A stretch of DNA of 64,000 nt from an uncultured Verrucomicrobiae bacterium (GTDB lineage Bacteria > Verrucomicrobiota > Verrucomicrobiia > Limisphaerales > Palsa-1400), in assembly GCA_963702845.1 (NCBI GenBank), contig OY969763.1, positions 1,504,001-1,568,000 on the forward strand. The letters run 5' to 3'. Each line of letters opens with the position of its first letter. Positions within the stretch are counted from its first letter, which is position 1. A program made the translations under genes and the position numbers. Below the pieces are notes generated by a model. The model made no database searches and was not told the DNA's origin. It worked only from the letters and a program-made list of their open reading frames with translations. Of the stretch, positions 28,115-53,636 are shown in pieces.

Positions 28115-29659
28115 ATGCTCAAATACTCGTTGGCGATCGTTCTGCTCTTGTGCGCTCTCCCTCCCTCACATGCCGAACCCGTCAAACCGCTCACGAAACT
28201 CAAGCCCGAAGAGCGTTCCTACCGGCTCGCCGGCGATGCCCGCAACGTCCAACTCTATCGCGATGGCCTCCGGGCCGTGCTGCAATACATGGACTCTCGC
28301 GATGATCTCTTCCCGCGTGTGCCTGTCCAAAAATCTCGCCTGCTGCTCCGTGAAGAAAAAGAGGCGGTGTGGAATACCTGGGAGCGATTTTTGGATTATC
28401 TGATGGCGTTGGAATCACTCGAACAATACCACTCGCAATTCGCGCGGTTAAAAGGGACGGAAAAGGAGGATTCGTTCCTGATCGACTACACGGCCCTGCT
28501 CGCCCGCTACCGCGCGGCGCTCGAGTTTATCGAACGTGCCGACAAGAATCCGGAACTGCACAAAGTTCTCAACGATCCTGTGCCGGAACTCGGTCTGTCC
28601 GGAGGGACGTATGCCGGCCTCAAATTCAAACACTTGAACATCGCAATCGCCACTCAGTTCGCCGCCCGCGAGGTCTTGATGAAGACCTTCACCGGGGAAC
28701 GCCAACCGGCTTTGCGCAAGGCGATCGCCGCCGATTCCGCTTACATCTGGCGCGCGGGCACGCCCAAAGGCGAAATCCTCACCGCGAAAAACGCCCTCAA
28801 GATGATCCAGGACGGCACCCAGACCGCCTGGCTCCCGATCCAGACCGGCGTCTCCGAATGGATGGGTCATACCAAAGTCTATCGGCCCAAGGAATGTCTC
28901 ATCACTCCGGCGCAAATCCGCGGACTTCAATCACAGCTCCAACCGGGTGACGTCCTCCTGGAACGACGCGAATGGTATCTTTCGAATATTGGCCTGCCGG
29001 GATTCTGGTCGCATGCGGCGCTTTACATCGGCACTCCGAAGGAACGGCACACATACTTTGGAGACGACCAAACCAGCACGTGGGTCAAACAGCGCGGCGA
29101 GGCGAGTGGCCAGCTTGAGCAGTTGCTTCTTTCGACCTGCACTTCCGATGGCCGATGCCAACTCACTAACCAAACCTCCTCCTCGTCCGAACCGATACGC
29201 ATCCTTGAAGCCATCGGCGAAGGGGTCTCATTCAAGTCACTCGAACATTCCGCCGCCTGCGATTCGCTCGTGGTTCTCCGCCCGCGCCTGCCTAAAACAG
29301 AGAAAGCGCTGGCGCTGTTTCGCGCTTTCCACTACGCCGGACGGCCGTACGACTTCGATTTCGACTTTTCAACCGACGCGAAATTGGTCTGCACCGAACT
29401 GGTCTACAAATCCTACGAACCATCGACGGGCTGCACCGGCCTCAAATTCCCGCTGGTCGAAATGCTCGGTCGGCAGGTCACTCCCGCCAACGAACTGGCA
29501 AAGCAGTTCGACGCTCAATTTGGAACCGTGGACCAGCAGTTTGATGTCGTGGCTTTTCTGGATGGGAACGAAAAGCAGAAAAAAGCGGTTTCGGCGTCGG
29601 TGGACGAATTTCGACAGACCTGGAAACGGCCCAAATGGCACGTTTTTGTGCAGAAATAG
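28115..29659 (+). CDS. YiiX/YebB-like permuted papain-like (NlpC/P60) amidase
   Basis: PGDVLL...FWSHAALYIG (His first), YDFDFDF...LVCTELVYKSY (Cys last); signal peptide. Confidence 0.88.
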   Translation: MLKYSLAIVLLLCALPPSHAEPVKPLTKLKPEERSYRLAGDARNVQLYRDGLRAVLQYMDSRDDLFPRVPVQKSRLLLREEKEAVWNTWERFLDYLMALESLEQYHSQFARLKGTEKEDSFLIDYTALLARYRAALEFIERADKNPELHKVLNDPVPELGLSGGTYAGLKFKHLNIAIATQFAAREVLMKTFTGERQPALRKAIAADSAYIWRAGTPKGEILTAKNALKMIQDGTQTAWLPIQTGVSEWMGHTKVYRPKECLITPAQIRGLQSQLQPGDVLLERREWYLSNIGLPGFWSHAALYIGTPKERHTYFGDDQTSTWVKQRGEASGQLEQLLLSTCTSDGRCQLTNQTSSSSEPIRILEAIGEGVSFKSLEHSAACDSLVVLRPRLPKTEKALALFRAFHYAGRPYDFDFDFSTDAKLVCTELVYKSYEPSTGCTGLKFPLVEMLGRQVTPANELAKQFDAQFGTVDQQFDVVAFLDGNEKQKKAVSASVDEFRQTWKRPKWHVFVQK

Positions 29660-29940
29660 CCCACGTTTTTTGGTCGCACCGGATATGCGAGACGTTGCCG
29701 GAGCGCGCGCTTGCTTTGGGCGATTTTCGTCAGACCAAACGTCATTCGTTGTAATGATTGCTGCGATGGTATTCTTGATGTTCACAGTCCCGGGCAGTTT
29801 AAATATTGCAGTCATAGCAAACAGTGAGGATCGAACTCGCTCAAATAAATATCACAATATCATTAACTGACCCTGGTTTGACCGCTCCTCTTGCACTTTT
29901 CGTGCGTATAAGTCGGTGCGTATTCTCGTTTGTGAACCAA

Positions 29941-33595: not shown

Positions 33596-33829
33596 TCAGC
33601 CGAGCGCGGCAATTTTCTCGCGACCTCGCATCGTTGGCCCAGCGACAGCCGGTGTGGGAACAGTCGCCTGCGCCAATTCCGCCGGAGCGTCTGACGTGAT
33701 CCAGCGGATCGCTTTCCATGAACCCATTTCCAATCGGGAATCGGCGCCGTATTCGGTTTTCAAGTGGAACTGCACCACGTCAAATTGCAACGGGCCGACT
33801 GCGGCGAGCAACGGGACCCGTTGCGCCGA
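33596..33829 (-). pseudogene. prfC: Fragment of peptide chain release factor 3 C-terminus
   Basis: AQRVPLLAAVGPLQFDVVQFHLKTEYGADSRLE...WKAIRW resembles the RF3 C-terminal GAVGxLQFxVV...EYG motif; no 5' part. Confidence 0.75.
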
Positions 33830-34210
33830 TACGCATCCTTGAAGCCATCGGCGAAGGGCGCTGTTTCGCGCTTTCCACTACGCCGGACGGCCGTACGACT
33901 TCGATTTCGACTTTTCAACCGACGCGAAATTGGTCTGCACCGAACTGGTCTAAAAATCCTACGAACCATCGACGGGCTGCACCGGCCTCAAATTCCCGCT
34001 GGTCGAAATGCTCGGTCGGCAGGTCACTCCCGCCAACGAATTGGCCAGACAGTTCGACGCTCAATTTGGAACCGGTGGATCAGCAGTTTGATGTCGTGGC
34101 GTTTCTGGATGGGAACGAAAAGCAGAAAAAAGCGGTTTTGGCGTCGGTGGACGAATTTCGACAGACCTGGAAACGGCCCAAATGGCACGTTTTTGTGCAG
34201 AAATAGCCCA
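33826..34210 (+). pseudogene. Degenerate duplicate of the 3' end of the YiiX-like gene (29192-29663)
   Basis: Near-identical DNA with an ~87 bp deletion, a TAC>TAA change, a 1-bp insertion and a few substitutions. Confidence 0.92.
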
Positions 34211-38726: not shown

Positions 38727-38940
38727 CGGAAGTTCGGTTTCTATCCAGACAGTTTGCCAAGGTCTGAAACGCCGTGTAAAGCAGCTGTGGTAATAAAGTT
38801 GAGTCCAATGAAGGCAATCTCATACCTCTTGCTATCGCGATGCGATACCAACCCGCGGATTCACGGCGGATGTTTCAGTGTTTGGGGCACACGTTCTAAA
38901 AAGCCCTTACATTTTCATCAAGCGGCTACATAGCGTTCAA

Positions 38941-39008
38941 AAGTCAAAAAAGGTCAACTAAAGGAAGTAAAAGGCAACAAAATCAGATTTTTTCAGTTTT
39001 AACAGTTT
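38941..39008. repeat. 10-bp phased A-rich array
   Basis: aagtcaaaaa/aggtcaacta/aaggaagtaa/aaggcaacaa followed by tcagattttt/tcagttttaa/cagttttc. Confidence 0.6.
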
Positions 39009-39104
39009 TCAAAATCCCTTCAGTTTGACCACATGGAGGGTGTTTGGTTTGGCGCGGTCATATAGCGAAGCGCGTCGGCGGCGTCATCGCCGCCAGCTCC
39101 TCGC
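39009..39104 (-). pseudogene. Terminase large subunit C-terminal remnant A
   Basis: GAGGDDAADALRYMTA(fs)KPNTLHVVKLKGF*. Confidence 0.75.
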
Positions 39105-39179
39105 ATAAAATTCGAAACGAACTCAAAAGCTCAAATACAGATAAACCGCGAACTACGCGAAATATGCGAAAGGGTTTTT

Positions 39180-39366
39180 CATCGGCGCTGTGCGCGGTTG
39201 ATCGAGTGCCTGACGGCATTGCAGTACCGATCCGGCTCGGCCTGAGGATGTGGACAAAGTTGACGAAGAGGATGGAATCGGCGGAGACGACGCGGCGGAT
39301 GCGTTGAGGTATATGGTGGCGACGAAGTCGCGCGTAGTGGTTCAACGGAAGTTGAGGGGGTTGTGA
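39180..39366 (+). pseudogene. Terminase large subunit C-terminal remnant B
   Basis: HRRCARLIECLTALQY(fs)DPARPEDVDKVDEEDGIGGDDAADALRYMVATKSRVVVQRKLRGL*, with a TerL nuclease-type C..LI..L...D...DALRY motif. Confidence 0.8.
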
Positions 39367-39372
39367 ACTGGC

Positions 39373-39396
39373 GCCCAACACTCCAACCTCAGCGCA
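39373..39396 (-). other. Right half of an attC-like site
   Basis: Minus strand GCGCTGAGGTTGGAGTGTTGGGC ends in GTTRRRY just after the TIR stop and resembles the right arm at 44192-44213. Confidence 0.5.
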
Positions 39397-39408
39397 TGAT
39401 GATGCTCT

Positions 39409-40100
39409 TCATTCAAGGGGCCATCGAATCGGGTCAATGTCGCGCCGCTCAGCCCGCAGCTTGGCGATGATCTCATCGTAGTCGTGGTCCAGGACTACCG
39501 CCCTAACCTCTCCACGGACGGAGCGAACTGCCTCTAGGTTCTGCTCATAGAGTGTCGGATCGACGTAAAAGGTGCCGTCCCATCCGAGCGCAGACAAAAT
39601 ATCCCCGACTATGTAAATATCTTTCAGAGGATGTTGGCGTGCCTCGAGTGCGAGGCTCTGTTTTGGTATTCCGTGTGCAACGCCAGCAAGATACATGAGA
39701 GACTCGTAGTAGCGGTCGGTCGAGAAATCCAAGTAGATGCGATCCCGGAGCCATGCAGGAGGCGTCACTGATTCGAGCAAGAGAGGCAACACTACCTTGC
39801 TGCTTGTCTGCTTCTCCTTGGCGAACGCACTCGCCAATTCATCTTGGCACCATTCTGAATCCACAGACTTGGGCGAGAGCACAATTGCGACAAATTTTGA
39901 CGCATCCAGTCCGCGGCCAATTGAACGATGCAATGAATCGCCAACCTCTAGTTCCCATTCGTCAAACCAGACGTCGATTCCAAGACGCTGAGGTCGAGAA
40001 CAAGCTTGCGTGCGAATTCTTTGTCCTTGGAACTGTGACTCACGAATACATGAGGCTTCCGATCAGGATGACTCTCAAATGTTGGGCGTGCTACTGCCAT
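39409..40100 (-). CDS. TIR domain protein 1 (frameshift near 39991)
   Basis: MAVARP...VFVSHSSKDKEFARKLVLDL|QRLGIDVWFDEWELEVGDSL...IVLSPKSVDSEWCQDEL; one C missing. Confidence 0.85.
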
Positions 40101-40157
40101 AGGGGGCCGAGCCGGACGGGCCGCTGGTCAGAGGGGGCGTGAGCTTCCCAAAAAAAG

Positions 40158-40186
40158 TTGACAAACCGGCGTTGCGGCGCTAATCG
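40158..40186 (+). promoter_or_regulatory. Sigma70-type promoter of the FRG gene
   Basis: TTGACA-N17-TAATCG. Confidence 0.55.
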
Positions 40187-40279
40187 CACAAGGAAACTCT
40201 CCATCTTTAACGATTACTTATGGGGTTCGGTGGAAAGTTGTCATATATATATATAGCGCTAAAACGCACATCAACATTT

Positions 40280-41038
40280 ATGAATGATGGAATTACCTCA
40301 GGAGCTTGGACAGAGTTCCTCAACAAGATCAGAAAAGCAAAAAGCGCCTTAGGAAATCCAGATACGCTTTGGTATCGCGGTCATCCGAACTCTCAGTTTT
40401 ATCTGCTTGCCAATTTGCTCAGATATGAAAACGGGATCGAGAAGGAGCAGCAGCTATTCAATAGTTTTCAGAAGTTTGCTGACAGGATTTTGAAGCGTCG
40501 AGAGAGCGAATGGGAGACTCTTTTTGAGATGCAGCACTATGGCGTGCCAACTCGCTTGCTTGATTGGACGGAGACGTTTGGCATAGCGCTTTTCTTCGCC
40601 GCGACATATAACCAATCGCACCATCCCGACAAAGATGCGGCTGTTTACTTACTGAATCCTGTAGCTTTGAACAAAATTAGTGGAATCAACAAAGTTTATC
40701 GCGTGCCAAAAGATGAGGCCCGCTTCGGCTACACCAAAATCTATTGGCAGCAGGATCCATTCGCGGCCACCGCACCGATTGCCATCGAGCCTATTTTTAT
40801 TAATGATCGGATGTTGGCGCAGCGAGGTATGTTCACGGTTCATCACGACCAGATTGAGCCAATCGAAGAGCAATTCCCCAATGCCATCAAGAAGGTTATA
40901 CTGCCAAATAACGTCATCCCGGCAGCTCTAGAGTTTTTGGACCTTTCCAATATCACTCGGTATTCTGTGTTCCCAGATATTGCCGGCATCGCTGGCTATC
41001 TGAAGGGGACATCTGGGCTGGTTCCTCGATGGAAATGA
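40280..41038 (+). CDS. FRG domain protein 1
   Basis: WYRGH, MQHYGVPTRLLDWT, ALFFA, RMLAQRGMF, SVFPD. Confidence 0.92.
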   Translation: MNDGITSGAWTEFLNKIRKAKSALGNPDTLWYRGHPNSQFYLLANLLRYENGIEKEQQLFNSFQKFADRILKRRESEWETLFEMQHYGVPTRLLDWTETFGIALFFAATYNQSHHPDKDAAVYLLNPVALNKISGINKVYRVPKDEARFGYTKIYWQQDPFAATAPIAIEPIFINDRMLAQRGMFTVHHDQIEPIEEQFPNAIKKVILPNNVIPAALEFLDLSNITRYSVFPDIAGIAGYLKGTSGLVPRWK

Positions 41039-41115
41039 CAAACGCTCATAATTGCGGCGTTCAAAGCGGAGTCCAGAGGTTGCAAATCTCTGGCGTTCCG
41101 CCTTGTGGCGCGACA

Positions 41116-41203
41116 GGGGGATGGGGGGCGGCGGATGCGCTGCGGTGTTTGGTCGCGACGAAGCTGCGTGTCATCATGCAACGGAAGTTGAGGGGGGCTC
41201 TAA
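41116..41203 (+). pseudogene. Terminase large subunit C-terminal remnant C
   Basis: AADALRCLVATKLRVIMQRKLRG(L*), DNA clearly similar to 39290-39366. Confidence 0.8.
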
Positions 41204-41204
41204 G

Positions 41205-41385
41205 CGTTAGCACGCGGGGACTAGTGTCTATCTCTGCATCAACCAAACCGGCATCTTTCATCAGCGCAATCTGGTACGCCTCGCTGGGTGTTTGCGCCCA
41301 ATATCGCCCGTACCTCGCTGTCTTCAAAATCACGCGCCTCGGCCTTCTGAAGTATCTGCCGCACCAATTCCATGTCGCGTTTCAT
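41205..41385 (-). pseudogene. Truncated DUF2513-like gene
   Basis: MKRDMELVRQILQKAE...(fs) AYQIALMKDAGLVDA, cut off at terminase remnant C. Confidence 0.7.
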
Positions 41386-41401
41386 CGTAGTGTCCTGTGA
41401 G

Positions 41402-42310
41402 TTAATGATTCTCGTTCTCCTGGTCAATTTCTGCCAAAAGTAGCTCAATCACGTAGCTCCCAAGTTCCGTAGTTGTGTATCTCTGCCGATTCTCCAACCA
41501 TACAACGTCATCCGATATCAGGAAGGTTGGCGTAAAATGAGATTGTCTCAGTATTTTGAAGGGGTCGCTCTTGGAGATGCTCAATGTGAGTACCGATGCG
41601 TCATTATAAATGCCTCCCAAGCCGTGGAGTTCAACGAGCAGCGTCAAGCCGTGTCTTGCTCGCAACAAAATTTGTAACAGAGAGCCTTGTCCATGAAACG
41701 TGAGCCGTAACGACGCATGGGATTTGGAGATTTCTTCGGCTGTGCGTTGTACGGAACGGGATAATTCTGCGAACGCAGCCTGCACAAGAGAGACTCCTGC
41801 TTCGCTTTGTGACAGTCGCTCGTTGTTTTCCTTTTCCCGTAGATTGGCATCGACTGTTTTCGCTCGTTCAAGGGCCTTCGAAGGTTGGCTAACGCTTATC
41901 TTGCGTTCGGCAACGTCAATTGCGCGCTGAATCTCGAGGACAACACGGTCGATGCCATCGTTGGCGTTGACGGCCAGCCGGCCCGCAAGAATTGGCGAGA
42001 ATTTTCGGACGCCATCGAAAGCAATGTTTTTCCACACCGGCAGGATTACTTTTCGATTGGTCTCTTCCAGGGCAAAAAATCCATCGAGCTCATTTTGCGG
42101 CCATTTTTTTTGAAAAAACGCCGGACTCAAAACTACGACGCCGTAGTCGCATGATCGCAAGCCCTCGTTGATCTTTCCAGAAAGGCTGTCGCCAATCGTC
42201 AGCACGTATTTGTCGAACCAGACTTCATATATTGTTCTTAGACGGGCCGCCAATGGAGCAACGAAGTCCTGATCTTCCCAAGCGTAGCTGACGAATATAC
42301 GCGTCTTCAT
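41402..42310 (-). CDS. TIR domain protein 2 with unknown C-terminal domain
   Basis: IFVSYAWED, VWFD...IGDSL..KINEGL..CDYGVVVLSP..F.KKWPQNEL, ILPVW. Confidence 0.92.
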   Translation of the reverse strand: MKTRIFVSYAWEDQDFVAPLAARLRTIYEVWFDKYVLTIGDSLSGKINEGLRSCDYGVVVLSPAFFQKKWPQNELDGFFALEETNRKVILPVWKNIAFDGVRKFSPILAGRLAVNANDGIDRVVLEIQRAIDVAERKISVSQPSKALERAKTVDANLREKENNERLSQSEAGVSLVQAAFAELSRSVQRTAEEISKSHASLRLTFHGQGSLLQILLRARHGLTLLVELHGLGGIYNDASVLTLSISKSDPFKILRQSHFTPTFLISDDVVWLENRQRYTTTELGSYVIELLLAEIDQENENH

Positions 42311-42321
42311 CCTGTCAAAGG

Positions 42322-42609
42322 TTAAGCTGACTTAAGGTGGAAGATTATAGCGTCCGATAGGCTCAGCGTTCCAAGATAAGCGAGTCCAAGGGAATCCACT
42401 AAGGCTTCAAGGTGTTCCAATTGCGGCGGTGTGTTCGGTATTTTTTTGGCGAGTTCATCGCCTTTGCCCATGAACTTGATTCTAGATTCGTCGAGGGGTA
42501 TTCCGATGGCCTGCGACTCAAACCTTTGGATTATCAGGTGATTGTCCTCCGAATCCCATTCTTGGGTTATTTGCTTATCGCTGACATTAACGCACGCGGT
42601 GATCTTCAT
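42322..42609 (-). CDS. Hypothetical protein (95 aa)
   Basis: ORF ends 11 bp before TIR2; preceded on the minus strand by TTGACA-N17-CAGCCT-GAGGA-ATG. Confidence 0.55.
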   Translation of the reverse strand: MKITACVNVSDKQITQEWDSEDNHLIIQRFESQAIGIPLDESRIKFMGKGDELAKKIPNTPPQLEHLEALVDSLGLAYLGTLSLSDAIIFHLKSA

Positions 42610-42669
42610 TCCTCAGGCTGTGCGTCTTTGGCTGAAGCTGTCAAGTAACCGTTAGCATCTTGTGACGCG

Positions 42670-42772
42670 AACCCTGTCAAAATGTTTTTGTACAGAAAAA
42701 TGGCGCGTAGGGGCGAGGTGGGGCGTGGGCTTCAAAGGGCTTCGGAAAATTTTTCAAAAACAGGTGGTAAAA
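42670..42772. repeat. Conserved-end phased-array element, copy 1 (3 x 10 bp)
   Basis: AACCCTGTCAAAA..TTTTT..ACAGAAAAA [ggcgcgtagg ggcgaggtgg ggcgtgggct] CTTCGGAAAATTTTTCAAAAACAGGTGGTAAAA. Confidence 0.85.
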
Positions 42773-42886
42773 CTCGGGCGTGCGAGGAATTGGAGATTTT
42801 GAGATTTGAGATTTGAAATGGCGGGCGCGAAGTGCGCGAAGGGGCGAAGTCGTTAGCAGATAGCGAATAGCAGATAAATGGAGTCC

Positions 42887-42925
42887 GATAACGCAGCGTA
42901 TCCGCTGTGACTCAATCGCCCACCT
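42887..42925 (-). pseudogene. Highly degenerate terminase C-terminal remnant D
   Basis: ggtgggcgattgagtcacagcggatacgctgcgttat reads as GGD(D)TADTLRY when indels are allowed. Confidence 0.5.
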
Positions 42926-43268
42926 AAACAAATCGTGCAACATGATATCAGGCAACGCTCCACTTACCGCCGCGTTTTTCCAAAACTGCAGTCAGCATCG
43001 CAGAGTGCGCCCAGGGGCCGACGCCTGACCGAGGTTTGAAGGATCGGCGCGCAAGGCAGATGGATGTTGCCGTTGATCGTCGATCGGCAACGCAGCGATG
43101 CGTTTTCTTCGGCCAACTCTTTCGGCGTCGGGTTGCGGCCGGTATTTTGTTCAACGCGCAAGGGACTCTGCAGGAAGCGCGCCACCTATAAAACCCTTGT
43201 TCGCGTATTAAAAATATGTGCACAGTTGTCACATATTAATTGTCTAGGCCACTGCGCACACTTTCTTT

Positions 43269-44132
43269 ATGACCTACAAATACGATTTAGCCATTTCATT
43301 CGCAGGAGAGCAGCGTAGTCTGGCAGACACATTTGCGCGGCGCTTGGACGCATCTGGATATTCAGTCTTCTACGATGAGTTTCAACAAGCCGAGTTGTGG
43401 GGGCGAGACTTGTCGGTTGCCCTGAGCAGTGTCTATTCGCAGGAAGCCCGCTACTGCTTGATTGTGCTTTCCAAGGATTACGTGGCGAAGCCGTGGACCA
43501 ACCACGAACGCCAAAGTGCGATATCGCAGTTCATCCAACGCCGTAGGGACTACATCCTCTGCCTCAAAGTCGAAGACATTGAGTTGCCGGGTTTCCCAGC
43601 GGTCAACGGCTACATCTCTCTTGATCGATTCGACGTAGAAGCCATTTACAAGCTCCTCCTCCAAAAGCTTGGGCGCCCGGACCACGAAAACCAAGTTTCC
43701 CATCTCGACCCCGGCGACAGCGCAATTGCCCAACAGGTTATCGAGGCGTGTTTTCGACGCGCCATCTACACCCGAATGGATTCCGAGATCGACATGCGCT
43801 CCATGTATTACTCAATCGGAAAGGCCCTCGGCACGGTACAGCAACTGACGGCGCGGATTCGCGATCAGGCCCTCCAACATGCCTGTGGCGAGATCATTAT
43901 AGCTCTCGACGAAATAGAGCGCGCCCAGACTCGCTCTGATGCTGGAGTGTCGAATCACCTCCCACAACCCATCCGGCAGCAACTCGACCTAAGCAAACAA
44001 AAGGTTGTTCGCCTGCTTCTTGAGATCCGTCGCGCTACTAAGATTCCGATGCAGTTACCCTTCGCAATCCAGACCGACCATTTTTGGGGACCAGAGGAAG
44101 CCGATCAAAAACCGCGAGAGAACGCTGCCTAA
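43269..44132 (+). CDS. TIR domain protein 3 with helical C-terminal domain
   Basis: YDLAISFAGEQR, GYSVFYD...LWGRDL, YCLIVLSKDY..KPWTNHE. Confidence 0.92.
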   Translation: MTYKYDLAISFAGEQRSLADTFARRLDASGYSVFYDEFQQAELWGRDLSVALSSVYSQEARYCLIVLSKDYVAKPWTNHERQSAISQFIQRRRDYILCLKVEDIELPGFPAVNGYISLDRFDVEAIYKLLLQKLGRPDHENQVSHLDPGDSAIAQQVIEACFRRAIYTRMDSEIDMRSMYYSIGKALGTVQQLTARIRDQALQHACGEIIIALDEIERAQTRSDAGVSNHLPQPIRQQLDLSKQKVVRLLLEIRRATKIPMQLPFAIQTDHFWGPEEADQKPRENAA

Positions 44133-44142
44133 ACAATCGCGA

Positions 44143-44213
44143 GCCCAACCATCGTGCTGCGGTTGCCAGCCACGCGACCCGTGGGTCGCGCCGCTGAACT
44201 TGGGTCGTTAGCC
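44143..44213 (+). other. Integron attC-like site
   Basis: GCCCAAC (RYYYAAC) 10 bp after the TIR3 stop, internal CGCGACCC-GT-GGGTCGCG hairpin, ends GCTGAACTTGGGTCGTTAGCC (GTTRRRY-like); 71 bp. Confidence 0.65.
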
Positions 44214-44270
44214 CTCGTTCACAACCCCGTCGGCTGCATTGTTTAGGTCAATCTGGTCGGTGGAAATGAA

Positions 44271-46301
44271 TTATTCTCCTTTGCCCTTTCGGGCCTTTAT
44301 CACGTTGTCAACCTCCTCAAGGATTCCCATTTGTGCGCACGTCTTCCGAAAATATGCATTCTGCAAGGTGAGGTTGAACTGGTTCGACAGGTTCACCGCG
44401 TCAGTGAACCAAGGTAGCGTCGCTGCGTGCGGGGCATCCGTGTAGAAGCTCAAAATCATGCCCATCAAGTAACAAAACTCCGGTTCGAAAGCCGGGATCT
44501 TATCGACGACTTTGTCCACGTTCGACTCAATCTCCTCGCGAATCCGTAACAACATCTGTTTGTCTGTCGATGGGTCTTGGAATCCGACCATCAGGATCTT
44601 GAGATACTCCACGATGGTTTCAAGGTACTGCGGGACCCGATTGAGATCGGAGTAGTAATTCCCGGCTTCCTGGATGTGGCGAAAAGCCTCCAGAAAATCC
44701 TGGTGCTTTCTGGCGCCAATGGCGATGGCGAGCGCGCTAAGCGCCAAGAGGTGTGGCTCATGGTACTTTTGGGCGAGGCACCTCGCCCGGGCGGCATCAT
44801 CCAGGCCCGACGCAAGCACGGCGGGGTTGGAGTCGCGGAATTTGATCATGGCCCTGCGACTGAGCAGTTGAGAAAGCCGAGGTTCGTCCCACTCCCGTTC
44901 CATTTCGTAGATCGCGCGGTCCAGATACACCATCACATCGGCAAAATATACCAAGGCGTAAAAGGAATAGTAGTAGATGACATCGGCCCATTCGGTGGTG
45001 GTGGGCTGCCTGCGAAACAGGTCAGTCAGGCTTTTCGGAAAATCTTTGAAGAGGACGGGATTCGCGTTGTACGTCTGCACCAGGGCGAGCAACCCCAGCG
45101 TTTCCGGAGATGTGTTCCGCTCGTGGTGGAGGTTAAGCTTTGCAGGATTCGTCAGATATTGTTGAACTCCGTCCGGGGTTTCACCGAACGGAACCTGGAC
45201 GATGCTGACTTCTATGGCTTGGGCGCGTTGCACCTTGTTCTGGAAATTGAACGCGTACGACCGGCCATGATTAAGGAGAAATCGTTCCAGAGAATCGGTC
45301 TTGTAGTCCATCTGCTGCCGTTCTTTCCAGACCCGGTCGTAGAGGTACCGGGCGGCTGCCTCGTCCCCGTTCGCTTCCGCCAAAGCGAACATCATATTCG
45401 CCGCATCCATCGGGTTGAGAGCTTGAATCTTCTCCCGCAACCGTTCCGCAAGAGTTCGGAGTTCCCGATTCGGTGGCACAAACGGAGAACAGGGAATCGA
45501 GGCGTCCGTCAGTCTCGCTTCCAGGAACGTCGTCGCGTCCGCCTCGACAGCAGTGGCCTTTTCGGGGCCATAAAGGGCGATCAGTTCCCTGATGCTGTCC
45601 CGGACGCGGGTCGCAGGCTGGTGCAGAAAAGTGAATCCTCTCGCAAACAAAGCGGCGTCACGGAACCCCAAATAGTTCAGATTGTCATCGAAATCGGCGC
45701 CGGAAAACCCGGCAAACAGAAACAGGTGCTCGCTCAGCAAAGACGCCAATGCCCGTTCCAAGCTCCTGGCCCGGCCCTTAAGCCGTTGCTTGCGCGTGTC
45801 CACCATCGATTCGGGCGAGGAGCAACAGCCGTGGATCTTGATGACCGGAATCTCGCCGGGGGGCTGCTGCTCGAAGGCATTGAAATCCGCTTCGTTAATC
45901 AACGCACGAAACGGAACGCGCGCGTCGACAAATGCACGTTCGAAGTTCTGGTCAAAATTGGTCGTCACCACAGCTCTTATGAGCCCCGTGCGGGCTCCAT
46001 TGGCGGTATAATGATGGAAGGCATTGTAGAAGTCTGAGTCTACAACGGTGAGCAGGTCGAAGTATTTCATACCTACGCGTTCCACCATCACCTGCGCTTG
46101 ATAATCCGGAGGAAAGGCATATTGCTTTCTTTTCGCTTTGATATGACCGAACACATCGCCACGAACCCGGTCCGGCAGGTTGTAAGGGGTCATCCTGTCC
46201 CAAAGCGCCTCCAATATGGCATCGTTCAGGTCGAACCACCCCGGCAGAGAGGCAGGGGGCCCAACCGAGCAACCCGCACCAGCGAAGATCACAAGGCTCA
46301 T
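44271..46301 (-). CDS. SIR2-like (SIR2_2) domain protein with TPR-like helical C-terminus
   Basis: VIFAGAGCS...LPGW, VTTNFD, IKIHG, FAGFSGAD; helical repeats after about aa 300. Confidence 0.88.
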   Translation of the reverse strand: MSLVIFAGAGCSVGPPASLPGWFDLNDAILEALWDRMTPYNLPDRVRGDVFGHIKAKRKQYAFPPDYQAQVMVERVGMKYFDLLTVVDSDFYNAFHHYTANGARTGLIRAVVTTNFDQNFERAFVDARVPFRALINEADFNAFEQQPPGEIPVIKIHGCCSSPESMVDTRKQRLKGRARSLERALASLLSEHLFLFAGFSGADFDDNLNYLGFRDAALFARGFTFLHQPATRVRDSIRELIALYGPEKATAVEADATTFLEARLTDASIPCSPFVPPNRELRTLAERLREKIQALNPMDAANMMFALAEANGDEAAARYLYDRVWKERQQMDYKTDSLERFLLNHGRSYAFNFQNKVQRAQAIEVSIVQVPFGETPDGVQQYLTNPAKLNLHHERNTSPETLGLLALVQTYNANPVLFKDFPKSLTDLFRRQPTTTEWADVIYYYSFYALVYFADVMVYLDRAIYEMEREWDEPRLSQLLSRRAMIKFRDSNPAVLASGLDDAARARCLAQKYHEPHLLALSALAIAIGARKHQDFLEAFRHIQEAGNYYSDLNRVPQYLETIVEYLKILMVGFQDPSTDKQMLLRIREEIESNVDKVVDKIPAFEPEFCYLMGMILSFYTDAPHAATLPWFTDAVNLSNQFNLTLQNAYFRKTCAQMGILEEVDNVIKARKGKGE

Positions 46302-46391
46302 ATTTGTTTCATTAACTTCCTTTGAGGGCGCCGGCGGGAGGAAGGCGTCGCTCGATCCTCGAAAAGCGGTATCGCACGATGATCGTTCTAA

Positions 46392-47924
46392 TCAAGGGAT
46401 CCCAAACGTGATTAAATTCGCGGGATTGAACAGGATTGGCTGGCGGCCGATCGCCGCTTGAGACGGAATAACTTCTGTGGAAAAAATTTCCCGGAATCGG
46501 TTGAAGTCAAACATCAATCGCGGATTGTAAATCATTTTAAAATAATCACGGACGCTCTTAATCTTCTTGCGGAAATCCGGTTTGAGGAGCTCGTTCAGAT
46601 CCGGTCGAAGCGCGCGCCGGAGAGCGTCGAACGAAACATAACCCTTGGACCCGCAGCCATCGACGGCAGCAAAGCCCGCTTCCATGCCCGGTCCGCAGAA
46701 ATCAGCAAAGATCTTCATCTGGGTCCCACGGTCGGTGGTGCGAGCAAGGCCGTAGGCCATCAGTCCAATCGCGCCGCCACACGCCGTCGCGATTTCATCG
46801 TCGGAGTAAGGCAACCTTCGCATCCCGTTCCAAATAAGCCTAAGTGTGTCACAGAGAGTGTCCGCAGAGAGACTGTTGGCAGTCAACGGAACCGGAAGCG
46901 GTTGAACCATCCAATCAACCGCTTTGTTGCGGATCGTTCGATCGCTGCGCAAGACCTGTTGAACGCCGTACGTCACAGCCTGTTGTAGATCCCGCGGTGA
47001 CGTAATGGGTCTCAAGTTCAAACGCATGAGCGGCCCTTTTGTATCGTGGTACTTTTCGTCAATGGCCGCTCCCCATGGCTGGAGCTGCGATGGAGTCCAT
47101 GAATCGAGCGGAACCAGTATTTCTGGATTCAAAAACGCCTGTTCGTAGAAGCCGTTCGGAAAACTGTTCCACTTTACATAACTTCCTCCGGGGCCACCGT
47201 CCGCGCGCGACTTCGTCACCCATTCTCGCATTTGTTCATTGGAGAAAGTTAAATTCTCCAGGTCAAAGTACTGATCCAGCAATTGTTCGAGTGCACTCTT
47301 GTGCGCGGGATAGATGTCTTCCTTTGTGGGAAACGGTGGCGGACCAGTTCGGGGAAACACAATACGGTCCATGGGAAAATCAACCTCCCAATTATAAGTT
47401 GCGTAGATAAAAACACCATGCTGTGCCTGCAAGCGCCAGAGATTTCGGACGTCGAGCGTAATCAATTCGATGGCCGCGCCACGACGTTCATCCAAATCCT
47501 TCATTACGTCCCATACTTCCATCAACTCGCGCGTATCGAGGCAATAAATACATGCCGGGTGTTCGTCCGGCGCGGCTGTGGTGTCGGTGGCAAAAAAGCC
47601 AGCCACCCCGGGCTCGGTAGTGAAGTCAATGTAGCGGGTGGGGACGCCATAATGTTGGAGGATGGCAAAAAAGTTGTGCACAGAAGCCGCATCTTGCAAG
47701 TAGCGCAACGTCTCGTGATCGGCCAACCACTTATAGAACATTCTAATCCGGCGGTTGTAATGCTCCAAATCCGCGGGTTGCCACTGCGTTTGACGACGCA
47801 AAATCGAGGAGTGCGGCGGCCAGTCACGTACCTGTCCCCGAAACCAGTCATAGCGTCCCTCCTGCTTAAACTGCTGGGCCATTTCAACGGCTCTTTCTAC
47901 CGAATCAACTTCAAACGTTTCCAT
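46392..47924 (-). CDS. FRG domain protein 2 with long C-terminal extension
   Basis: WFRGQ, LQHYGVPTRYIDFT, AGFFA, RLQAQHGVF. Confidence 0.88.
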   Translation of the reverse strand: METFEVDSVERAVEMAQQFKQEGRYDWFRGQVRDWPPHSSILRRQTQWQPADLEHYNRRIRMFYKWLADHETLRYLQDAASVHNFFAILQHYGVPTRYIDFTTEPGVAGFFATDTTAAPDEHPACIYCLDTRELMEVWDVMKDLDERRGAAIELITLDVRNLWRLQAQHGVFIYATYNWEVDFPMDRIVFPRTGPPPFPTKEDIYPAHKSALEQLLDQYFDLENLTFSNEQMREWVTKSRADGGPGGSYVKWNSFPNGFYEQAFLNPEILVPLDSWTPSQLQPWGAAIDEKYHDTKGPLMRLNLRPITSPRDLQQAVTYGVQQVLRSDRTIRNKAVDWMVQPLPVPLTANSLSADTLCDTLRLIWNGMRRLPYSDDEIATACGGAIGLMAYGLARTTDRGTQMKIFADFCGPGMEAGFAAVDGCGSKGYVSFDALRRALRPDLNELLKPDFRKKIKSVRDYFKMIYNPRLMFDFNRFREIFSTEVIPSQAAIGRQPILFNPANLITFGIP

Positions 47925-47971
47925 AAAAGTGAAGTGGACTTGCAGGACTGGTGATGTGGCGATCCTCCCGA

Positions 47972-48802
47972 TTAACGTTTTGGCGGTGGAGGCGGATTTG
48001 GCGCACCAGGATTGCCGGCTGTCGGTCCGGGCGATTGCGGATTGGGACCGGGAGCAGGCTGGCTGGAGTTCGCGGTTTGCGGCACGGCATCAGCGCCAGA
48101 CTTCGGTTTCACGAAGAACACGTCAGCGATGTCTTTGAGTTTCAATACGGCGTTTTCACTGAACAGGCCGATCAGCGCTGCCAGAGCGCAAAAACCGAAC
48201 GGGCTGGTTTCACTAAAATTTGCCGTTGGCGAAAAGAAGCCGCCGCGAACGACAAAGTAAAAGATCGCGGCCAATCCTAATCCCATGAAAGGTCTCAAGT
48301 AATAATACAACAACCAGCTCGTCACAAAGCCACGGTTGCCCACATACCATGAAATTGACCGTAGAGCATGAACACAAGCTCCAAGCGCCCCCGCCAGGAG
48401 GACGAGCACAAAAAGCCGGGCGTCGTTGTACAGGACGAATTTCCGCCAAAACAGGCTGGCTTGCTGTGGGTCGTAATAGATGCTTTCTTCCCGCTCGGCA
48501 CCTTCACCAATCTTCGAGCCTTGAGTGTCATTACTGGTCGGAGATGTTATCCCGGGCGGAGGGACGCCGGAGGATTGCGCGTTGGTGGACGGGCCATGAA
48601 TCTGACTGGACTCAACGCGTTTGAGTCCACTGGGGGTCGGCCGAGGCCAAAGCGCGATAAAACAGTATACAATCAAAACAACGAGTAACGCGTAGGTGAT
48701 GCAAAGCAGCGCAAGATCGCCGACGGAGGCGAGCTCTTTTCCTGGTCCCTGGCCGGGTTTGAACACCGTAGGCGGGGGAGGGCCATATGATGGCGCGTTC
48801 AT
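47972..48802 (-). CDS. Four-TM membrane protein with Pro-rich tails
   Basis: LAGALGACVH...YVGNR...W..YY.LRP..G...A...Y...RGG, GLFS..A..KL; probable start MNAPSY. Confidence 0.75.
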   Translation of the reverse strand: MNAPSYGPPPPTVFKPGQGPGKELASVGDLALLCITYALLVVLIVYCFIALWPRPTPSGLKRVESSQIHGPSTNAQSSGVPPPGITSPTSNDTQGSKIGEGAEREESIYYDPQQASLFWRKFVLYNDARLFVLVLLAGALGACVHALRSISWYVGNRGFVTSWLLYYYLRPFMGLGLAAIFYFVVRGGFFSPTANFSETSPFGFCALAALIGLFSENAVLKLKDIADVFFVKPKSGADAVPQTANSSQPAPGPNPQSPGPTAGNPGAPNPPPPPKR

Positions 48803-48809
48803 AAGCGGT

Positions 48810-49007
48810 TCAGGATTGTTTCCAAAGTCGCAACGTCCACCCGTGCCATTCGGGTTCCGAGCTGTCCACGCGCTCAAGCGTTCCGATATCTTCCTTGTTC
48901 CATACAAGCAAGCACGCGTTTAGCGCGAGACGGCGGTCGTCAGCGCTTTTTGCGACGCGGCCAATGCTGGCTTCGTCGGTCATCCACAGGTCGGCAGTAT
49001 CGCTCAT
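48810..49007 (-). CDS. Small hypothetical protein (65 aa)
   Basis: Fills the gap between two co-oriented genes (15 bp and 7 bp spacers). Confidence 0.45.
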   Translation of the reverse strand: MSDTADLWMTDEASIGRVAKSADDRRLALNACLLVWNKEDIGTLERVDSSEPEWHGWTLRLWKQS

Positions 49008-49022
49008 AGTTTTTTTTGTGTT

Positions 49023-50159
49023 TTAGAACATTGCGTTTGTGTAAAAATGAACGGCTCCCTTTTCAGCACCGGTTTTAGCCGCATCGTTGTTGAGTTTCTT
49101 CAACTTCGCTTGGGCATCCTTTTGAAACTGTTCCAATTCAAGTTTGCGAGCTGCAGGCAATGCTGGTTGAGTGAGTTCTGCCGCGATCGCGTTTGCGTTA
49201 GAACGCAAAATTGCCCGGTACCGGCCAAATTCGTTATAATCTTTGGGAGCTGCGGCATTGACCACCGTGCTTTGCAGATTATGAGCAGCGGGTGGTGGAG
49301 GTGTAGTGAACTGAAGATAGGAGGCAGGGATAAACGAGCCAAGATTATTGAGGGCATCGACCTGTTCTTTCGCGCGAGGGTCGCCGTTAGCAGCGGCGGC
49401 CTGCAAGCGCGAATAGACATGGTTCAAAATCGTTTCATCGTGGATAGCGGAATCCGTGCGCGTGCCAACAGCGCCGGAAATCGCCATGGAATCGAGGGCG
49501 GCCTTTATCTGCGGGTTTCCCGCTGCGATTTCGGCGGCTTTGCCTGTGGCAAAGGATTGTTTTATGCGCACACCACCGTTGTTCGGGAAATTGGTGGTAA
49601 TGCCTGTTTCATTGGTGGTTGAATTGACGGTAATATCGGCATATACGGACCGGACTTCCGCCTCGGACTCTTCGACAGGTATGATCGTGCCCTCCACCCG
49701 TTTATACCCGAGCAGAAACGTGGGACTTACGTCCTGTTTGCCCGCAGAAATCTTCAGCCCGAAACTTGTATCGGTCACGAAGAAGAGCGGATCTTGGCCG
49801 GTGGTTGAATTCCTGCATGGACAGCCCGCCCCGGCGTCAGCAACCGGAGGCGTAGAACGAGCAGCGATTTGCGCGGCTTTGCCGGTAGCAAACGTCTGGC
49901 GAATCGTGTATTTGGGCGGAAACCATTTCATGTCCGCATCGAGGCCGCCGTAAACAGAGTACGGATCGCCAGTGGTGCTGCGTGGGACGATGGCGCCTTC
50001 GTATCGGCTAGTAGAGAGGGAGACTTTGTCGGGCATTTGGGCTGTGCCCGACACTTCCATACCGATGGATGTTTTCGTTGCGAAGAAGAGGCGGGGAGCG
50101 CATCCGGTATGGATCAGAAGCCCCAAACAGATTATTGCATTTGCGATTATTGTTTTCAA
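49023..50159 (-). CDS. Putative lipoprotein with internal duplication
   Basis: Signal ending HTG-C; repeated motifs LFFxTxTSxG...R.EG.I.P...SVY...I.Q.FATGKAA. Confidence 0.75.
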   Translation of the reverse strand: MKTIIANAIICLGLLIHTGCAPRLFFATKTSIGMEVSGTAQMPDKVSLSTSRYEGAIVPRSTTGDPYSVYGGLDADMKWFPPKYTIRQTFATGKAAQIAARSTPPVADAGAGCPCRNSTTGQDPLFFVTDTSFGLKISAGKQDVSPTFLLGYKRVEGTIIPVEESEAEVRSVYADITVNSTTNETGITTNFPNNGGVRIKQSFATGKAAEIAAGNPQIKAALDSMAISGAVGTRTDSAIHDETILNHVYSRLQAAAANGDPRAKEQVDALNNLGSFIPASYLQFTTPPPPAAHNLQSTVVNAAAPKDYNEFGRYRAILRSNANAIAAELTQPALPAARKLELEQFQKDAQAKLKKLNNDAAKTGAEKGAVHFYTNAMF

Positions 50160-50788
50160 TGAGATGTAATGGAGTGGATTGAATAGTTGAAGTCGGGAAC
50201 TGACGGAGAAAAATTATATTCGACATCGCCGCTGACGTTCTCATCGAGAACGGTCGTCAAGGTCGTTTTCGAGATACCGATTTTGAGGTTAGGGTCGGCA
50301 TTGGCGACGCGAAGGCAGCCGCCCTTGACGCTGTTCACAAGAAGCCGCACGTGATTGTTCTCGCGCGGGATGCGGTAATGGACGAAGCCCAAATACCAGC
50401 CGTTGACATTGCCAAAGCCGAAGCCCGAGGGCGCGAGAAAACGGTTGGTGGCAGAATTAGAGAGCACGAATCCGCGCGCCTGCTGTTGCCAACCTAATGC
50501 GGCTTCGATTCCCACCGGAATGACGGCAAGATCAAACGGGGCGGTTTGGGTCTTTTCCTTGGCCAAAACCGTTCTGTAGTCCAAGGGTCTCAATTCGACG
50601 GTGTGACGGGACAGTCCCATCGACCAGGTATCGCCGGCGGCTGATTCGAATCGAAAGGCACAGCCGGCGCAGGAAGTTACAACTAGAAGCAGGCTGAAAA
50701 TAGAAGCTTTGGTGAAAGCAACCGACCGGAACGGGGTTGCTGTTCTGGATGAAAACCGATTGCTACATTTTCTCCGCTCATCACTCAT
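50156..50788 (-). CDS. Putative lipoprotein
   Basis: LLLVVTSCAGC lipobox-like segment; 4-bp overlap with the next gene; start uncertain. Confidence 0.55.
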   Translation of the reverse strand: MSDERRKCSNRFSSRTATPFRSVAFTKASIFSLLLVVTSCAGCAFRFESAAGDTWSMGLSRHTVELRPLDYRTVLAKEKTQTAPFDLAVIPVGIEAALGWQQQARGFVLSNSATNRFLAPSGFGFGNVNGWYLGFVHYRIPRENNHVRLLVNSVKGGCLRVANADPNLKIGISKTTLTTVLDENVSGDVEYNFSPSVPDFNYSIHSITSH

Positions 50789-51119
50789 TCCGTAAGCTCC
50801 GGTTTCAGTATTGCTGACAACAATACGCCATCGACAGGTCGAGCCCGTCCTGATTGTCGATCCGCCTCGCTGACATTCTAGGTATTTTGACAATCGTTCG
50901 CCCGTGAATATGCATTGCTGTATTTGACTGCGCGCGGACGTTAACAACGAATGCACGGAATAGGCAAGAGTTTAATTGACAGCCTTTGCTTATGCATCGA
51001 AACCGGAGATATCAGGTTACTGATTTTCGGTTCTATGTTATTATTCTAGTCTGTTTCTTAATCAGACAGCCACTGAGACGAAATTGCGGTCAAATACGGT
51101 GGGGGTTACATACGCGATA

Positions 51120-51326
51120 TCATTCGTTGGTTTTGACCAAACGGATATCCATGACATCATCGGGATTGAAAGCTTCATCGGTTTGACAATCTTCACCGTT
51201 GAACACTAATGCGTTCTCAATGAGATGATTGTTTTTCAGGACCAAGGTTACCCTCTGGTAACCCATTCCCGACTCGGGCATCTGTGCCAGACGCTGGCTC
51301 CAGAATTTGTTGAGGCGGATGATCAT
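51120..51326 (-). CDS. Small PExGMGYQ-motif protein (putative antitoxin/partner)
   Basis: MIIRLNKFWSQRLAQMPESGMGYQRV...; starts 1 bp after the upstream stop. Confidence 0.75.
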   Translation of the reverse strand: MIIRLNKFWSQRLAQMPESGMGYQRVTLVLKNNHLIENALVFNGEDCQTDEAFNPDDVMDIRLVKTNE

Positions 51327-51327
51327 C

Positions 51328-52095
51328 TTATCTGTCCGGGATGGTCGTTGGTCCGGCAACTGTGCCATCGGGCAGCCCCAGAACAAAGATCACTTCTTCA
51401 CCACCTCCGGGCTGATTGTTAGCGGGTTGCACAGTTCCACGTTTAACCTCCGAATCCTTCGCCGGTGAGATAGTGAACACGTTGCTTGCCGGCTTGCTGT
51501 TTGGCAGCGCATATCGTGCGACCGCATCTGTTCCGGTACGAACGTGCGCATCCGCGTCCTGCTTTGTCGTCGCGAACGTTCCCGGAGTAAGGCCTTTGCC
51601 TGAAGTGACGCGTATGTCGTTGGCGTACTGCGAAAAGCGTTTAAATATTTCGTTTTCTACGGTCAATGTAACCGGGGCTGTTTCAGCAGCCGCGCTTTTA
51701 GCACATAAGGAAAAGTTCTGGGCTTCCGCGAGTAAGGTGGTGCGCGTATTTCCCAATGCGTAACTGGCCTGACTTTCTTTCCGGTTTGCCAGAACTCGGA
51801 ATTTCTCGTTTGCGAAGACTACTTGGCGCACTCCTTTCAGCGTTTCGGGTTCGCGGGGTATAAGTGTTACATTCTTTACTATCAACCTCGATTTCCTCGC
51901 CTCGGTAAGGATGTAATTCCAATTTCCGAACATGTGGTAAGGGTAATCGTCCCGTTTCAAAAAAACCTGGCTGTTGACTACTATTCCTGATTCTGTTCCA
52001 CCGGTGTTCAAAGTGGCGATCACCTTTTGGTAGCCCATGCGATACTCAGGTTGTTTAGACAACCAATATTCCAACCATCCTTCTAGTGGCAGCAT
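51328..52095 (-). CDS. PExxMGYQ N-terminal domain plus C-terminal TNT-like toxin domain
   Basis: QPEYRMGYQKV; C-terminal FKRFS...GTFAT...RYALP...GTVQPANNQPGGGEEV. Confidence 0.7.
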   Translation of the reverse strand: MLPLEGWLEYWLSKQPEYRMGYQKVIATLNTGGTESGIVVNSQVFLKRDDYPYHMFGNWNYILTEARKSRLIVKNVTLIPREPETLKGVRQVVFANEKFRVLANRKESQASYALGNTRTTLLAEAQNFSLCAKSAAAETAPVTLTVENEIFKRFSQYANDIRVTSGKGLTPGTFATTKQDADAHVRTGTDAVARYALPNSKPASNVFTISPAKDSEVKRGTVQPANNQPGGGEEVIFVLGLPDGTVAGPTTIPDR

Positions 52096-52297
52096 GGGGA
52101 GTTGATAAGCGCGTGCGTACGATAACGCAATCCGTTTTCGCGAGATTTCGACGCTCATGCGGCGACAGCGTTCTTAAAGCGAGTACGACTAACGAAGGGA
52201 CATTGACAGTCACGGACGATCATGGGAACGAATTATTACGGGGACGCTTTCGCGTGGCCGCTGGGCTAATTTCTGTAACCCCTTCGGGGTATTTCAA

Positions 52298-52419
52298 AAC
52301 CCTGTCAAAAGTTTTTGCACAGAAAAATGGCGTGCAGGGGCGTTGTGGTGCGCGGCGAGGCGTGCTGGTGCGTGGTGGGTTTTGAGCTTCGGAGGAATTT
52401 TCAAAAACATGTGATAAAA
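52298..52419. repeat. Conserved-end phased-array element, copy 2 (5 x 10 bp)
   Basis: Same ends as 42670; units ggcgtgcagg ggcgttgtgg tgcgcggcga ggcgtgctgg tgcgtggtgg. Confidence 0.88.
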
Positions 52420-52444
52420 AGGTTCGCGTGAGTGCGACCAGGAA

Positions 52445-52568
52445 AACCCTGTCAAAACTTTTTTTCACAGAAAAACTGCATGTCCGTGCATGTTCCTGCA
52501 ACTCCCTGCATGTTGGTGCATGTCGGTTTAGGGACTTCGGAAAAATTCTCAAAAACATGTGCTAGAAA
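52445..52568. repeat. Conserved-end phased-array element, copy 3 (5 x 10 bp, different unit)
   Basis: Same ends; units tgcatgtccg tgcatgttcc tgcaactccc tgcatgttgg tgcatgtcgg. Confidence 0.88.
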
Positions 52569-52727
52569 TCTACGCATGAAAAAGAACCATCAGTTTATCA
52601 AGAGGCCGGCGAAGCCGGTGGCGCATCCACAGTCGAATAAGCAAGCTGCGGATTCTCAACGCAAACGTGCCGCACAGAATAGGGTGCAAGTCGGCCAGTG
52701 TGAGCCATCTTCAAAAAACTGCCCGAA

Positions 52728-52767
52728 TGTCGCATGGTTTCGCTTTGTTTCGCGTGGCTTCGCTAGA
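52728..52767. repeat. 10-bp phased array (TCGC core)
   Basis: tgtcgcatgg tttcgctttg tttcgcgtgg cttcgctaga. Confidence 0.7.
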
Positions 52768-52890
52768 CGCCTGGCGGCGAAACTCTCACACTATACACAC
52801 ATGAAAGAGACATCGCGTTCGACCAACTACCTGTCGCGCCGAAGTCAGACGCAGGCGGATCAACCCTCAACCATTAACTTGTTTTAACCA

Positions 52891-53262
52891 ATGCATTCTA
52901 CAGACACAAAATCAAAGTTCCTCGAGTTCCGCGGCAAAGGCTGGAGCCTTGCCCGCATCGCAAAACAAATCGATGTCAGCGTCCGCACCTTGGCCGACTG
53001 GAACCAGCAACACCGCCAGGAAATACGCACGCTCCGCGCCATCGATATCGAAGCTCTTCAGGAAAAGTTTCTCGCCACCCACGAGCAGGAGCTCAGTTCT
53101 CTCACCGCCCAACTCCAGCGCATCGAGCAAGCGATCGGCGACAGCAAACTCCAATTCGTCGAAACTAAAGACTTATTCCGACTGGCTGCCGTGACCCGCG
53201 CCGAAATCCGCAAAGTCATCATACCCACGGAGCCGGATGATAAATCGCATGCACAAAACTAA
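52891..53262 (+). CDS. Small HTH protein with coiled-coil C-terminus
   Basis: GWSLARIAKQIDVSVRTLADW HTH motif. Confidence 0.82.
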   Translation: MHSTDTKSKFLEFRGKGWSLARIAKQIDVSVRTLADWNQQHRQEIRTLRAIDIEALQEKFLATHEQELSSLTAQLQRIEQAIGDSKLQFVETKDLFRLAAVTRAEIRKVIIPTEPDDKSHAQN

Positions 53263-53265
53263 AAT

Positions 53266-53636
53266 TGCATCGTTTCTGCATCATTTTTGCATCATTTCCC
53301 AAATGGAGGCCGTTACAAAATCCAGCGGCGGTCACGTTTGGTCACGTTCGGTCATGTTCAGTCATCTTTGGTCACGCGCGCCCATTGCTTGCGTCCTTCT
53401 TGTCGCGCCGGAGCGCCGCGGGAAGGCGGACGCGCCCGTCGCGCAAAATCCATTACCGGTCAAATTCGGTAAAGAAAAGGTAAAGAAACAGTAAAGTTTT
53501 GCCCCTCGTAAAATGAACACGGTTCAAACGAAAAAACGTACAGAAAATGTACAGAGAGGTTCAGTTTTCGGTTCACGCCTGAAAAACCGTGAAAAAGGTA
53601 ACGGGAGGTAATCAGAAGTAATCGGAGGTAATCCGT
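53266..53636. repeat. Cluster of five different 10-11 bp phased arrays
   Basis: TGCATC x3 (53266, period 11); GTCAC/T x5 (53331, period 10); GTAAAG x3 (53469, period 11); GTACAG/GTTCA x4 (53538); GTAA x4 (53597, period 10). Confidence 0.82.

Follow-up and report, generated by a model that had tools for sequence, protein, structure and literature searches.

What are repeated, isolated 3' ends of a phage-type terminase gene doing beside accessory genes in a bacterial chromosome? The question is raised by a 64,000-nucleotide (nt) stretch of DNA from an uncultured Verrucomicrobiae bacterium (contig OY969763.1, positions 1,504,001 to 1,568,000; hereafter, the window), which lies inside a genome of 6.03 Mb assembled as one contig (G000), and in which a first-pass annotation had described four such ends of the terminase large subunit gene, terL. 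Coordinates in the range 38940-53633, and any others introduced as window positions, refer to this stretch; those such as 398725, 550657 and 808325 refer to G000. Our analysis indicates that the 3' polarity of these terL remnants is real and order-wide, and that its cause is the position of the terL end beside a cargo slot. This reason had escaped the first-pass annotation: the terL stop borders a slot that is closed on its opposite side by a hairpin, designated M1.

The identity of the four ends was assessed with an nhmmer DNA model built from the 3' ends of the seven intact terL genes of G000 (T1-T7), and three of them were upheld. Remnant A (39009..39101, minus strand; E=1e-11) consists of the last ~31 codons of a terL of the type found in the stand-alone terminase pairs T4 and T7, with a single frameshift, a 1-nt deletion, that leaves its KLKGF* tail in the shifted frame. 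Remnant B (39175..39366, plus strand; E=2e-39) holds the last ~64 codons of an element-type terL, with a +1 frameshift and the tail KLRGL*, and its identity is settled because intact parents are known at 85% identity (that to T1). Remnant C (E=5e-9) comprises the last ~25 codons at 41128..41203 on the plus strand; its previously claimed span, 41116-41203, began too early, the upstream segment 41066-41127 being the M1 hairpin and a short repeat, not terL. The fourth end, D (42887..42909, minus strand), is a plausible 23-nt terL trace that ranks as a candidate only, with E=75 genome-wide, a score equalled by 240 background matches (~0.16 per 4 kb; 45 over the same model region). Its peptide, ADTLRY, fits a pattern, AD[ATS]LR[YC], that has 21 six-frame occurrences, five of which, besides D, fall at places without other terL similarity. 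The parent gene is assigned to the terminase large subunit by PHROGs (PHROG terL), and a PDB sequence search with T1 returned no match. The DxxDALRY motif that closes terL is one that we take to hold a nuclease aspartate.

At a threshold of E<0.01, G000 as a whole holds 14 terL remnants alongside the seven intact genes. Thirteen reach the terL stop and the other stops 11 nt short of it, with 5' ends lying 48-200 nt upstream. When 90-nt models were slid along terL (E<=0.05), the non-intact matches numbered 15, 11, 4, 2 and 0 from the stop inward; elsewhere in the gene there is one strong internal fragment (550657, E=7e-8), together with scattered matches at E>=0.0017. The same polarity is evident in 400 other genomes of the order, where a C-terminal 60-residue query gave 129 matches, 56 of them in open frames shorter than 300 residues, our proxy for fragments, and an N-terminal query of equal length gave 81 matches, seven of them in short frames; these counts, tallied by hand, take in a few contig-edge and frameshifted genes, and related genomes are not independent. 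Neither outcome that would have counted against the first-pass annotation came about: the pieces match terL, and fragments derived from elsewhere in the gene are few. One terL piece of a different kind (2362107-2362175, codons -82 to -60), starts with an ATG of its own; it lies upstream of a two-slot array, directly against a cargo gene that is convergent with it.

As a mirror control, we looked for fragments of other element genes. The capsid, scaffold and exonuclease genes yielded none, a helicase query yielded two N-terminal pieces, and the portal gene yielded one 5' remnant beside an attI-like site at 808325. This portal remnant (808057-808411, codons 2-30) is in its placement a mirror image of the terL tails. 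An imbalance of 14 terL 3' remnants to one portal 5' remnant could also arise if imprecise, pac-like cuts were made by the terminase close to where its gene ends, and the free ends were then captured by recombination; a similar role for cos ends has been speculated on for the P2/P4 hot spots (PMC9122126). We regard this as improbable: the end point is not fixed, ranging over 48-200 nt in G000, the last 30 codons carry no extra synonymous conservation (0.52 vs 0.42-0.52), and a packaging site was not located.

The key to the polarity lies in what adjoins the terL stop. Five of the seven intact terL genes belong to integrated elements at tRNA or tmRNA genes; the other two, T4 and T7, each form a stand-alone pair with TerS, surrounded by host genes. 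In one element, E1, a scan of 18 open reading frames (ORFs) matched an integrase, resolvase, exonuclease, primase-helicase, TerS, TerL, portal, scaffold, major head protein and adaptor, with no match to a tail gene among them; judged by these matches, the elements appear to be head-only and phage-like. M1 is a 30-nt hairpin with 15 copies in the genome, two of whose ten pairs show compensatory change across nine sequences, and as a rule it is the first feature to follow the terL stop. An empty allele, with M1 within ~10 nt of the stop, is present in locus L003 and in 8 of 49 intact loci surveyed for the DNA behind terL; the others have a different hairpin (6/49) or unrelated DNA (35/49) there. 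Behind T1, T2, T3 and T5, different small genes stand between the stop and M1. Given these differing genes and the empty alleles, the border between stop and M1 is therefore a cargo slot. Tandem slots with different cargo follow intact terL at T2 and T5 and at L047, which has three, and tandem remnants also occur at L061, L212, L246, L266 and L290. Intact terL genes at L045 and L049 have a direct duplication of their 3'-terminal 21 nt and ~10 nt, respectively, just behind the stop.

Most of the remnants have the same surroundings. A same-strand M1 lies within -300 to +3000 nt of 12 of the 14 (0.46% for random positions), and an attI-like repeat lies within 3 kb of 10 of them (4.6% for random positions), the typical host-located module reading terL end, convergent gene, attI-like site, M1. 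The window follows suit, with B, a TIR-domain gene, an FRG-domain gene and the M1 copy at 41066..41095 (plus strand) forming one slot, of which B is the left and M1 the right flank, and with C, joined behind that M1, opening the next slot as its left flank.

The 5' junctions of the remnants suggest how such units may have formed. In 8 of the 14, the remnant is preceded by element backbone whose usual place is downstream of terL, drawn from at least four donor sites and joined to terL positions -129, -94, -87/-84, -75 and -48, and six of these eight junctions show overlaps (microhomology) of 4-11 nt. Joints of this type also arose independently in L266 and in L047, where an intact terL is followed by two extra slots, giving three cargos. 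Once formed, the junction repeat spread as a unit, being identical at 91 of 94 positions between the T2 and T5 arrays and at 92.6% over 148 nt inside L047. The remnants are 80-87% identical to the nearest resident terL, with differences mostly at third codon positions (0.17/0.08/0.28, against 0.13/0.03/0.34 in the control). Their phylogeny with the intact genes reveals several parents: at least three origins are needed, and four remnants form a group without a resident parent. The earlier view that A and B derive from diverged parents is borne out by this tree, in which B falls with the T1 group and A with T4 and T7 (support 99/95, but with long branches).

An intact gene followed by a same-strand 3' duplicate, as at T2, T5 and L047, might equally be left by site-specific integration into terL that displaces its 3' end, as with helper-embedded satellites or tRNA-targeting islands. 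Junctions ranging from -48 to -200, inserts of 0.3-2.6 kb without an integrase, and the lack of any integron integrase over the TIGR02249 cut-off in G000 all speak against this, and we consider it very improbable. A fixed integration site is largely refuted by the variable junctions.

Taken together, these data make it probable, in our view, that the terL remnants, as left flanks of a slot between the terL stop and the hairpin, were duplicated by out-of-register recombination, in which DNA from downstream of the slot was joined to a stretch of 50-200 bases at the end of a related terL. If two related elements crossed over at short microhomology, one product would be an intact terL followed by an extra [terL end - cargo - hairpin] slot. 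The reciprocal product would have a truncated terminase and would be lost, so that only 3' ends would accumulate. The composite of hairpin and terL end would then likely act as a homology handle for further exchanges of cargo, and modules in host DNA, such as those of the window, are likely to be pieces of such arrays that were moved by illegitimate recombination or left behind after the rest was deleted.

The principal competitor to out-of-register recombination is decay with hitch-hiking, in which the host acquired complete elements or terminase pairs by integration and retained the useful cargo while deletions trimmed the rest, so that the flank nearest the cargo survived. The first-pass annotation had reasoned that random decay should not keep the same piece each time; this was too strong, because decay that retains cargo likewise keeps the adjoining flank. 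Several observations are in keeping with trimming: the lengths of 38 fragments form a continuous, decaying spread of ~30-145 codons; the remnant of L002, in genome G001, lies 243 bp behind an integrase gene; the islands at 398k and 2360k retain further pieces of the interval; and genome G070 has seven remnants and no intact copy among those scored. Decay alone, however, makes neither the junctions of downstream DNA to terL nor the extra slots behind intact terL. Moreover, the intact elements sit at tRNA and tmRNA genes, whereas seven remnant islands lie 18-100 kb from any such gene, and, apart from the T4 pair, these islands retain no trace of the integrase, TerS or replication genes of the five elements. 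We therefore regard decay as a possible but rather unlikely explanation of the remnants as a whole.

A number of results nevertheless weigh against duplication by out-of-register recombination, among them the 5' truncation of 27 of 70 close metagenome loci, which is also in keeping with decay. Six of the 14 remnants (A, B, 398725, 2817455, 3447096 and 3667419) have 5' junctions with host repeats, with a promoter leader or with DNA that could not be placed, rather than with element backbone. Behind the stop of A there are repeats, not cargo; these have a 10-bp period (38940..39000, minus strand), find one genomic match at 3324680-3324734, and resemble those behind the stand-alone T4 and T7. A search for an empty host site in genomes G001-G003, where synteny is lost or contigs are too short, found none, and no parental pair came to light. 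There is no clear sign that the ends of intact terL genes were themselves replaced, identity over the last 90 nt (0.87 for T2/T5 and 0.79 for T3/T6) being within the spread of other windows along the gene, and no Rad52-like recombinase was identified among the 18 E1 ORFs scanned. In viral contigs, a second tandem copy within 6 kb was found at none of 67 loci, and 17 of the 21 close ones are intact; for lack of such copies, the arrays may be mostly chromosomal dead ends, scars rather than a working system. The import of gene-plus-terL-end units that the first-pass annotation proposed is thus only partly sustained: such units exist and stem from several parents, but their import into host loci is not shown, no empty host site having come to light.

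Other sequences are associated with the 5' and 3' sides of remnants. REP-like repeats precede B, 398926 and 3447248, and in G070 (L088-L093) a REP-like palindromic repeat is fused to the terL tail and amplified with it as one composite at six or seven loci. At L110, the attC-like sequence right behind a remnant contains a 1.76-kb insertion (3665664-3667421) with a transposase, which shares 98.6% identity with an insertion in element E5; from the start of its protein, it presumably belongs to the IS110 family.

The cargo of the window consists of putative defence-like genes, as judged from matches to Pfam TIR, FRG and SIR2 and to PADLOC candidate models; at other loci, the cargo is mostly small unannotated ORFs. 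As the first-pass annotation had noted, both B and C abut convergent accessory DNA. Facing B is a TIR-domain gene (39409..40100, minus strand; Pfam TIR_2, PADLOC PDC-S66) that is frameshifted near 39990 and so lies in two frames; beyond it follows the FRG-domain gene (40220..41038, plus strand, with the ATG probably at 40280; Pfam FRG, PADLOC PDC-S15, E=4e-42). Facing C is a truncated DUF2513-like fragment (41239..41400, minus strand; Pfam PF10711, E=0.005, below cut-off), and then a second TIR-domain gene (41402..42310, minus strand; Pfam TIR_2, PADLOC PDC-S66, ThsB-like). This recurrent placement opposite convergent defence-like genes raises the prospect that the remnants were retained for a function of their own, as a terminator, an RNA element or a decoy peptide for terminase-sensing defences. 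The frameshifts in A and B, the variable lengths, promoter (sigma-70) and terminator matches at shuffle level, the lack of an Rfam match and the lack of synonymous constraint all argue against it, leaving it with very little likelihood. A cis-element inside the terL end was likewise rejected, the synonymous, Rfam and promoter/terminator scans giving no sign of one. Further along the window, a SIR2-like gene and a second FRG gene (44271-47924) form another defence-like pair.

Integron-like features accompany part of this cargo. An attI-like repeat (43181..43252, plus strand; 73 genome copies at E<1e-3) ends at a GTT-like core before a small TIR-domain gene (43269..44132, plus strand) with a cassette-like layout, which is followed by a degenerate attC-like cassette end (44143..44214, plus strand). 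The region 44126-44214 folds with z=-2.1, and the end boxes are unpaired in the lowest-energy fold; a strict finder reported no cassette-associated attC in six regions. Across 20 intI loci the model of the attI-like repeat had no match, and the likeness seen by eye is confined to the last ~20 nt. Of 301 genomes of the order, 105 have an integron integrase; as a mover of the cargo here, such an enzyme was rejected, being absent from G000. Chromosome-wide, this ~70-nt repeat precedes small genes in a genome with no integron integrase, and its upstream flanks comprise several families of captured sequence.

Several known systems offer points of comparison. PeSL cassettes of the T4-type phages RB49 and phi1 consist of ~100-bp repeats with a stem-loop that flank variable ORFs, and integrase-free recombination inserts and excises their cargo (PMC2839356). 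The arrays at T2, T5 and L047 likewise have direct repeats around different ORFs; the PeSL repeat, however, is a promoter-terminator with demonstrated mini-circles, whereas the repeat described here combines the end of a coding gene with a hairpin, a fusion that was made several times independently. The anti-phage hot spots of P2/P4 lie between rep and portal or beside cos (PMC9122126). They share with the terL slot a small, high-turnover locus between two conserved element parts, empty and filled alleles, and defence-like cargo. The terL slot differs in lying between a gene and a non-coding hairpin, and in the duplication of its flank and the spread to host loci; the P2/P4 account, in the part available, describes no duplicated gene ends. 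Relaxed homologous recombination over short, diverged homology is documented for temperate and defective prophages (PMC3945230), and exchange among co-resident elements would be similar here, although with out-of-register products and no Rad52-like recombinase identified. CALINs in phages (PMC9892861) and delta-attI cassettes (PMC12901181) offer an integron-type comparison, with many cargo genes bearing attI-like and attC-like ends and no integrase nearby, but the terL-end unit exceeds a cassette in size and is not bordered by att sites. Helper-embedded satellites land in a late gene, terminase included, with their own integrase and fixed att sites (PMC10111431), whereas the units here have neither an integrase of their own nor a fixed att core. 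By analogy, the system may be said to resemble PeSL cassettes placed in a P2/P4-like hot spot with integron-like cargo. We found no account of recurrent terL 3' remnants in the literature covered, the accessible part of bioRxiv 10.1101/2024.10.15.618418 included; most subscription papers and all supplements fell outside its scope.

Duplication by out-of-register recombination would provide a traceable route from the cargo slot of a phage-like element to chromosomal defence islands, in which each terL tail marks and dates a hand-over of cargo and names the parent lineage. In practical terms, the tail is a cheap probe with which to mine unannotated accessory genes in Verrucomicrobiota, the 60-residue tail query pointing to cargo-bearing islands in 69 of 401 genomes, ~20 of them without an N-terminal match. 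A bolder proposal, which we consider doubtful, is that [terL end - cargo - hairpin] units are cut out as circles at the junction of hairpin and terL, are carried in element heads and, by one crossover within the terL end, enter any related element or remnant again; the chromosomal remnants would then be docking sites that seed and grow defence islands order-wide and without an integrase. If the tails did act in this way, they would constitute a homology-driven analogue of the integron built from coding sequence.

Additional duplications and repeats were observed in the window. The 3' end of the gene at window positions 28115-29659 is duplicated (29192-29663 and 33826-34210, 95-98% identical) ~4.5 kb downstream, with two genes between the copies, and is thus another gene-end duplication around cargo. 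At 52297-53633, a helix-turn-helix gene with a weak Terminase_5 match, accompanied by upstream repeats and by 10-bp tandem repeats, has at least six related copies in the genome, and its leader shares 54 nt with the leader of the E1 portal gene. Finally, a perfect 27-nt palindrome occurs at ~28 sites in G000 (among them 124640, 2816476, 3667650 and window position ~17770); it precedes genes that are TerS-like or of other kinds, and cassette-like genes often lie on its opposite side.

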